DNA from: an uncultured Candidatus Bathyarchaeia archaeon
Lineage (GTDB): Archaea; Thermoproteota; Bathyarchaeia; Bathyarchaeales; Bathycorpusculaceae
NCBI GenBank assembly: GCA_964450845.1
Contig: CAYVGZ010000015.1
Location: 1 to 23,225 of the forward strand
Direction: 5' to 3'
DNA length: 23,225 bases
Each line of letters starts with the position of its first letter. Positions within the stretch are counted from its first letter, which is position 1. The notes under the pieces are model-generated. The model searched no databases, was not told the origin of the DNA, and saw only the letters and a program-made list of their open reading frames with translations. The position numbers were made by a program, and so were the translations under genes. This document shows, one piece after another, positions 22,512-23,225 of the stretch.

Positions 22512-22952
22512 CTATTCTATGCCCCATTTTATGGTTATTTTCACGATGAGGAAGACTACGAAGGCGACGATAATGAATGTTATCAATGCTGCCATGAAAT
22601 CTCCTACGCCGAATACTTGCCCAGCATAGTCTGCAGGCGGGTTTCCAGAGGCATCAAAGGTCGTGGGTGGAATTCCGAACTTGAGCGTTGCTAGGTTTCC
22701 TATTCCTGCACCTGAAAGTGCGAGGCCAATTATCGGCATTATGAAAACTTTGACAAGCGCCTGCACTAATGCGCCTAAGTAAACACCCATGATGAACGCC
22801 ACTGCCAAGCCCATAACCTTGTATTTTGAAATGAAATCAATAAACTCTTTCCACAACCCTTTCGGCGGAGGCGGAGCCGGTGGAGCAGGCTTAGGCTCTA
22901 ACAATGTTCGAATGCGCTTCAACTCTTCTAACATCTCATCATCTTTAGCCAA
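22512..22952 (-). CDS. mscL: Large-conductance mechanosensitive channel MscL with atypical N-terminal extension
   Basis: S1-TM1 GLWKEFIDFI.KYKVMGLAVAFIMG...LV..FIMPII; TM2 FGVGDFMAALITFIIVAFVVFLIVK; TTG 22952 behind GGGTG. Confidence 0.9.
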   Translation of the reverse strand: MAKDDEMLEELKRIRTLLEPKPAPPAPPPPKGLWKEFIDFISKYKVMGLAVAFIMGVYLGALVQALVKVFIMPIIGLALSGAGIGNLATLKFGIPPTTFDASGNPPADYAGQVFGVGDFMAALITFIIVAFVVFLIVKITIKWGIE

Positions 22953-23004: not shown

Positions 23005-23090
23005 TGGGCCGAGCCGGATTTGAACCGGCGACCTTTCGGTTTCTGCGCTTTTATCAGCCGAACGCTCCAGCCAAGCTGAGCTACCGGCCC
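23005..23090 (-). tRNA. tRNA-Ile(GAT) with 11-nt intron at 37/38 (23041-23051)
   Basis: Cloverleaf: acceptor GGGCCGG/TCGGCCC, D stem GCTC/GAGC, anticodon stem TTCGG/CCGAA, loop CT-GAT-A[AAAGCGCAGAA]A, T arm GCCGG-TTCAAAT-CCGGC; CCA not encoded. Confidence 0.95.
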
Positions 23091-23176: not shown

Positions 23177-23225
23177 GGGCCCGTAGCCTAGTACGGATCA
23201 AGGCGCCGGCCTTCGGAGCCGGAGA
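23177..23225 (+). tRNA. tRNA-Arg(TCG), 5' part only (truncated by window end)
   Basis: GGGCCCG-TA-GCCT...AGGC-G-CCGGC-CT-TCG-GA-GCCGG; anticodon at 23213-23215; no intron at 37/38. Confidence 0.88.

Follow-up and report, generated by a model that had tools for sequence, protein, structure and literature searches.

The DNA analysed here (the window) is a 23,225-nt stretch of contig CAYVGZ010000015.1 (assembly GCA_964450845.1) from an uncultured Candidatus Bathyarchaeia archaeon. Near its right end, on the minus strand, lies a gene for MscL, the textbook model of force-from-lipid gating, and the flanks of this gene are tRNA and ribbon‒helix‒helix (RHH) genes. The encoded protein carries an amphipathic helix (N-helix) and a Pro-rich linker ahead of S1, the interfacial helix, and ends soon after the second transmembrane helix (TM2). 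Judged from the sequences, it belongs to an archaeal N-helix subfamily of MscL whose layout is new within a known family, and no description of a helix‒linker‒S1 arrangement was found in the searchable literature. An earlier note on this DNA had proposed that the cytoplasmic bundle helix of MscL (C-helix) was moved from the C-terminus to the N-terminus; the identity of the protein, the reality of the extension and the likeness of the two helices are examined below. The features of the gene and its surroundings are collected in Table 1.

Table 1. Features of the mscL gene, its product and the upstream region in the window
Feature	Position (nt)	Strand	Details
mscL-family coding sequence (CDS)	22512–22952	−	146 amino acids plus TAG stop (22514–22512); start TTG 22952
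C-terminal tail WGIE and TAG stop	22512–22526	−	four residues after the modelled TM2
TM2	22527–22607	−	residues 116–142; AlphaFold2 helix
Outer loop	22608–22706	−	residues 83–115; predicted beta hairpin, AlphaFold2 strands 91–94 and 112–115
TM1, pore-lining helix	22707–22817	−	residues 46–82; AlphaFold2 helix and alignment with solved MscLs
S1 amphipathic interfacial helix	22821–22856	−	residues 33–44, LWKEFIDFISKY; Pfam profile position 1 here; AlphaFold2 helix
S1–TM1 hinge residue Y44	22821–22823	−	Tyr in at least 90% of the N-helix subfamily
Pro-rich linker	22857–22898	−	residues 19–32, EPKPAPPAPPPPKG; AlphaFold2 non-helical
N-terminal acidic amphipathic helix	22899–22949	−	residues 2–18, AKDDEMLEELKRIRTLL; AlphaFold2 pLDDT ~85
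Shine–Dalgarno-like GGGTG	22963–22959	−	6 nt upstream of TTG 22952; read from sequence
TATA-like A/T-rich hexamer TTATAA	22987–22992	−	26–31 nt upstream of GTG 22961; read from sequence
tRNA gene, 86 nt	23005–23090	−	directly upstream of mscL; Rfam RF00005, 54.7 bits
Resembles 5′ half of another tRNA	23181–23225	+	GGGCCCGTAGCCTAG..., by eye; cut by the window end; no Rfam report

MscL core and the absence of a C-terminal helix

The gene product is a MscL-family protein. The open reading frame (ORF) matches the Pfam family PF01741 (MscL; TC 1.A.22) with 71.3 bits (E = 1.2e-19, cut-off 27.4; residues 39–145 of the 152-residue ORF that begins at the most upstream start candidate), and a whole-genome scan with the same profile gave 75.4 bits for MscL. 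The match spans positions 1–94 of the 123 in the profile and leaves 95–123 unmatched, so the part of the profile that represents the C-terminal linker and bundle helix, at about positions 97–123, has no counterpart. The bacterial equivalog models of NCBIfam (TIGR00220, PRK13952 and others) match the core below their cut-offs, at best with 65 versus 159 bits (NF010557) and 47.5 versus 71 (TIGR00220), and neither the equivalog score nor the C-terminal linker and bundle helix of a canonical bacterial-type MscL is found here. The nearest solved relatives by sequence are the M. acetivorans MscL structures 4Y7J and 4Y7K (E = 6e-10), followed by the MscLs of E. coli, S. aureus and M. tuberculosis. 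A single-chain AlphaFold2 model built from a 93-sequence alignment (mean predicted local distance difference test (pLDDT) score 86.8) displays S1, two transmembrane helices and the outer loop of the MscL fold, and a Foldseek search with this model returned MscL structures only, with 4Y7K (E = 8.6e-4), 2OAR and 3HZQ on top. The earlier note's identification of the ORF as MscL is confirmed by both profile and fold.

The assignment of S1 also follows from alignments to the M. acetivorans and E. coli proteins. TM1 holds the motif GLAVAFIMG of the constriction region, and G48, A50, A52 and F53 are conserved in the 93-sequence alignment, as are F119, T125, F126, I128–A130, F134 and K138 of TM2. The outer loop differs in length among homologues. 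The protein ends 4–9 residues past TM2, with neither linker nor C-terminal helix, which agrees with the earlier note, and in 77 of 78 species the chain continues for exactly 8 residues beyond the conserved K/R that closes TM2. The hinge between S1 and TM1 is occupied by a Tyr throughout most of the subfamily (Table 1); in E. coli, where the hinge residue is Gly14, bulky substitutions abolish function (PMC4917966). From its sequence the protein is probably a functional channel, and a homopentameric, tension-gated pore of large conductance would be expected from the family.

The N-terminal extension and its conservation

As the earlier note had written it, the protein reads (M)AKDDEMLEELKRIRTLLE-PKPAPPAPPPPKG-LWKEFIDF... 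and ends in ...VKITIKWGIE. The extension ahead of S1 is a 17-residue amphipathic helix (DDEMLEELKRIRTLLE) followed by a 14-residue Pro-rich linker. Residues M7, L8, L11, I14, L17 and L18 form a hydrophobic stripe on the helix. Their 4-3-4 spacing with flanking hydrophobic residues (hydrophobic moment computed) is of the wide-interface coiled-coil type, and the net charge of −3 suggests that this is not a membrane-binding helix. Only four columns of the 93-sequence alignment are invariant and I14 is one of them, while L11, P22 and P24 are conserved in at least 90% of the sequences. The conservation of I14 and L11 is on a par with that of core residues, which supports the N-helix as part of the protein; conservation of this helix was a point on which the earlier note had made its reading depend. 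Across 78 species the linker measures 12–24 residues (median 15) and is 40% Pro.

There are four in-frame start candidates upstream of or within the extension, namely TTG 22970 (152 amino acids), GTG 22961 (149), TTG 22952 (146) and ATG 22934 (140), and the products of all four contain the helix MLEELKRIRTLLE. The sole in-frame start that bypasses the extension is TTG 22856, which would give a typical MscL N-terminus (MWKEFIDF). The ATG starts of homologues align with 22961 (MxVLAKDDE) or 22952 (M[ST]KEDEML), several of them with a stop codon just upstream. The true start is probably one of 22961, 22952 and 22934, each of which keeps the helix. Profile models and gene callers detect only the MscL core, and for this reason start calls are inconsistent, with lengths of 140–184 amino acids among relatives. 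Both the TTATAA hexamer and the GGGTG motif are putative signals that may serve as promoter and ribosome-binding site, respectively.

Codon comparisons indicate that the extension is translated and under purifying selection. The same genome carries a second MscL paralogue (L081; G000 contig 2, ~57739–58200, plus strand) with the same N-helix and Pro-rich linker (EKDDEMLEELKQIRTLLTPKPAPPTPPPPKG). Between the two genes, 16 of the 31 extension codons differ by synonymous changes only and 4 by non-synonymous changes (5/3/17 differences by codon position), and the comparison with another relative, L068, gave 14 and 2. The extension is not a chance lengthening of the ORF, since the codon differences are mostly synonymous. 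Close homologues retain it as protein, and the substitutions in it are conservative, as in MSKDEEMLKVLKEIKTLLEPKP and ILSTDEKILAELKKIREAVEPKP. When scanned by itself (32 and 43 residues, E up to 10), the extension had no Pfam match, the piece being too short for such a scan to inform.

Within this genome the helix‒linker module occurs in the two MscL paralogues only (46 and 45 bits with a position-specific scoring matrix (PSSM); next 8.4), and all 120 matches listed in a database search with residues 1–40 are PF01741 proteins. A general archaeal N-terminal tag was ruled out by these two results. Origin of the N-helix as a duplicate of S1 was likewise ruled out: its sole profile match, described below, is to the bacterial C-helix and not to S1.

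A species-level scan (one genome per species, with search patterns taken from the transmembrane core and not from the extension) gave 80 loci. Of these, 79 are complete at the 5′ end; every one of them carries the helix‒linker module, with overall identity falling to about 45%, and none a C-terminal helix. Most loci come from Bathyarchaeia; the remaining Thermoproteota include Methanomethylicia, Nitrososphaeria, Nitrososphaerales, Nitrosopumilales and others. Beyond this phylum, loci were found in the Asgard phyla (Hod-, Thor-, Heimdall-, Hermod- and Promethearchaeota) and in one metagenome-assembled genome (MAG) of the Thermoplasmatales. A sample of 151 evenly chosen genomes of the phylum contained 45 with MscL, and the 40 genes fetched from these comprise 29 with the N-helix, 8 short forms without either helix and 3 that are broken; no MscL match in this sample passes position 107 of the 123 in the PF01741 profile. 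The short forms (L083, L085, L089, L090, L093, L094, L096 and L097) make up one family with a Pro-rich stub (MSDAPPPKQSF...) and lack both the N-helix and the C-helix; by sequence they may be precursors of the N-helix type or derived from it by loss. In a library of representatives at 50% identity, the N-helix subfamily extends to about 40% identity and includes members with long acidic linkers.

Some unusual members were also seen. In P0134, P0136 and L060:802-1863, two domains of the DUF1508 (YegP-like) family stand in front of the N-helix together with a long spacer (Pfam, 2e-33), and this fusion was not discussed in the papers searched. The 18-kb contig that carries another N-helix MscL (L016, DASPPK010000006.1) belongs to a MAG with the label Candidatus Acidiferrales bacterium; this contig was probably mis-binned or the gene transferred, as the tree groups L016 inside the Bathyarchaeia sequences. 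P0219, a 284-residue protein of the representative library, groups with bacterial forms in its core, has a helix-like NLMENLEAL with PTPPP ahead of S1, and carries a CxxC...CPCC segment at the C-terminus; its source may be eukaryotic. At the locus itself, the tRNA gene directly upstream of mscL is suggested to be an intron-containing archaeal tRNA because ARAGORN gives no anticodon, and a second, truncated tRNA-like sequence lies at the window end (Table 1).

Likeness to the bacterial C-terminal helix, function and origin

The N-helix was compared with bacterial MscL by aligning a 20-column profile of the helix (80 species) to a full-length bacterial MscL profile with hhalign. The single match was to the C-terminal helix, with IR placed on IR (P = 2.9e-4, probability 41%), which is the register that the earlier note had proposed in equating LKRIRTLL with LTEIRDLL. 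A local rerun scored 22.7 (E = 8.7e-5), while the same columns reversed scored 11.6 and 300 column shuffles averaged 9.3 (standard deviation 2.2, maximum 18.0), none reaching 22.7 (z ~6). The likeness is therefore dependent on residue order and goes beyond composition or amphipathicity. Scoring matrices agree in both directions: with a PSSM of 59 non-redundant bacterial C-helices, the two MscL N-helices of this genome rank 17th and 21st among 1.43 million six-frame windows, and with a PSSM of the archaeal N-helix the C-helix is the top window in 94 of 131 bacterial MscLs.

The stable five-helix bundle of bacterial MscL, built from the C-terminal helices, serves as a sieve and stabilises the oligomer (PMC5722894). 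S1 sits at the membrane interface, where it couples tension to TM1 (PMC4917966). With a probability of about 60%, the proteins described here are a MscL subfamily in which a bundle of N-helices is the functional counterpart of that C-terminal bundle. It is established that both MscL termini are cytoplasmic, and we infer from this that the five N-helices meet below the pore. There, the five acidic amphipathic helices would come together along the pore axis in a parallel coiled-coil bundle, joined by five polyproline struts of ~40 Å to the outer ends of S1 at the channel periphery. The length of the archaeal linker is close to that between TM2 and the bundle in E. coli. The resulting cage would resemble the bacterial one but be tethered to S1, the force-coupling element, and not to TM2. 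Such a bundle may stabilise the pentamer and pre-filter solutes, and could possibly limit or tune expansion; gating threshold or sieving might also be affected.

Several observations weigh against a bundle of this kind. What points to bundle formation is the pattern of the helix sequence, and the chain direction of the N-helix relative to the membrane, as read from the order of segments, is opposite to that in the bacterial bundle. The N-helix is dispensable for MscL as such, because eight genomes of the same phylum have neither helix. The DUF1508 fusions fit a cytoplasmic appendage but would crowd an axial bundle. A profile search of the PDB with the 20-column N-helix alignment found no MscL, and its top hit (PAK1, E = 0.47) is noise. 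Finally, a local hmmsearch of the six-frame genome with a 17-column hidden Markov model (HMM) of the C-helix left the N-helix outside the top 25; this HMM is over-sharp (59 near-identical bacterial helices) and its output is dominated by local fragments, and the full-window PSSM was used in its place.

A separate question is that of origin. The N-helix could share with the bacterial C-helix an ancestral segment that changed places near the archaeal/bacterial split, when the gene was duplicated, fused and truncated; this is possible but on balance doubtful, and it concerns ancestry in a way that is compatible with the functional bundle. In its favour are the order-specific similarity in one register (L..IR.LL), the agreement of the PSSM ranks and the confinement of the module to MscL among the genome windows and the matches listed. 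The two helices are also mutually exclusive, as the C-helix is absent from every N-helix protein and the 151-genome sample never extends past profile position 107. Against it, the stretch aligned by hhalign covers only ~14 residues with a probability of 41–60%, which is below the usual level for homology, and the PDB search was negative. The order of segments is a further obstacle. All 79 species have helix‒linker‒S1, in which the linker follows the helix and does not precede it as in bacteria, whereas duplication followed by truncation would give linker‒helix‒S1. The arrangement hence mirrors the bacterial one and is no permutation of it, and the Pro-rich linker must have arisen separately, showing that convergence acts in this region. 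The earlier note's circular permutation with the linker retained is not supported by this order, and its relocated helix is partly supported, by the one-register profile match to the C-helix but not by the PDB search or by any intermediate. No tandem or double-helix form was seen among ~490 retrieved proteins and 120 loci, in which proteins longer than 256 residues were not searched systematically, and the nearest relatives without the N-helix (the P0206 type and the short type with a Pro-rich stub) lack both helices. In a tree of the MscL core, one well-supported clade holds 34 of the 38 N-helix rows and the other four lie outside it, and N-helix forms occur to either side of the main split, which makes an old origin possible. 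The tree is poorly resolved (97 columns, 38 of 65 forks open); it is compatible with one origin or several and gives no direction of change, whether gain or loss.

The N-helix may instead have been acquired independently for another job, as a docking or regulatory element or as an aid to assembly or insertion carried on a Pro-rich arm, its likeness to the C-helix being convergent. This appears unlikely. A Pro-rich N-terminal stub without the helix is found in P0217, P0237, P0242 and P0269 and in the eight short-type genomes, which fits stepwise growth; the DUF1508 fusions show that the N-terminus accepts other soluble modules; and the negative PDB search is also as expected. Yet MscL is the only protein on which the module was seen, the surroundings of mscL in the window showed no conserved gene for a partner, the shuffle and reversal controls place the C-helix likeness beyond composition or amphipathicity, and the hydrophobic stripe with its heptad spacing fits self-association. 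The weakest alternative, raised in the earlier note as grounds for rejecting its own proposal, is that translation starts at TTG 22856 and the upstream sequence is a 5′ untranslated region (UTR), for which speak the textbook MscL N-terminus that this start provides and the lack of Pfam matches upstream, but it is effectively refuted, and excluded in practice, by the excess of synonymous codon differences (16 versus 4; 14 versus 2), the retention of the protein sequence in 79 of 79 species with I14 invariant, and the homologous ATG starts upstream of the helix with stop codons just before them.

The role of the cytoplasmic bundle of MscL is debated, with sieve, oligomer stabiliser and gating participant all proposed (PMC5722894). 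A large natural subfamily that carries a look-alike helix on S1, the site of tension transmission (PMC4917966), and not on TM2 is a ready comparative experiment, one that bears on threshold, substates and sieving, and on the need for a bundle in pentamer assembly in archaeal lipids. The most far-reaching version, in which the N-helix is a true evolutionary counterpart of the C-helix, transferred a single time at an early stage of archaeal (TACK/Asgard) or bacterial evolution, and now forms a pentameric bundle that is tethered to S1 by stiff polyproline struts and tunes gating directly, is improbable as a whole. If true, the bundle would restrain or tune gating beyond mere filtering, and the subfamily would be a natural domain-swap on the question of its role.

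Comparison with known MscL channels

The closest relative of solved structure, M. acetivorans MscL (4Y7K, closed; 4Y7J, expanded), shares with the present protein the S1‒TM1‒loop‒TM2 core, the hinge Tyr and the motif LA[VI]AFIMG, and both lack the C-terminal bundle helix. The M. acetivorans protein starts at S1 (MGLFSEFKEF) without N-helix or Pro-rich linker, and so bears out the earlier note's statement that some archaeal MscLs have no extra helix. Bacterial MscLs (E. coli MscL (EcMscL); 2OAR; PF01741, TIGR00220) have the same core and likewise an amphipathic L..IR.LL helix on a Pro/Ala-rich linker of ~14 residues. In bacteria the order is TM2‒linker‒helix at the C-terminus, whereas here it is helix‒linker‒S1 and the protein ends after TM2, and the hinge Gly14 of E. 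coli is replaced by Tyr. The E. coli tail given in the earlier note, EEPAAAPAPTKEEVLLTEIRDLL, is the one that the E. coli MscL chain shows in the PDB alignment. Walton and Rees reportedly described the C-terminal domain of EcMscL in 2013 as a COMP-like five-helix coiled coil. The N-helix resembles the helix of that domain in its hydrophobic residues at the equivalents of L122, I125, L128 and L129, in the conserved Arg that follows the Ile and in its acidic flanks; it differs in being about one turn longer at its N-terminal end (M7, L8) and in running, within a putative pentamer, in the reverse direction relative to its tether.
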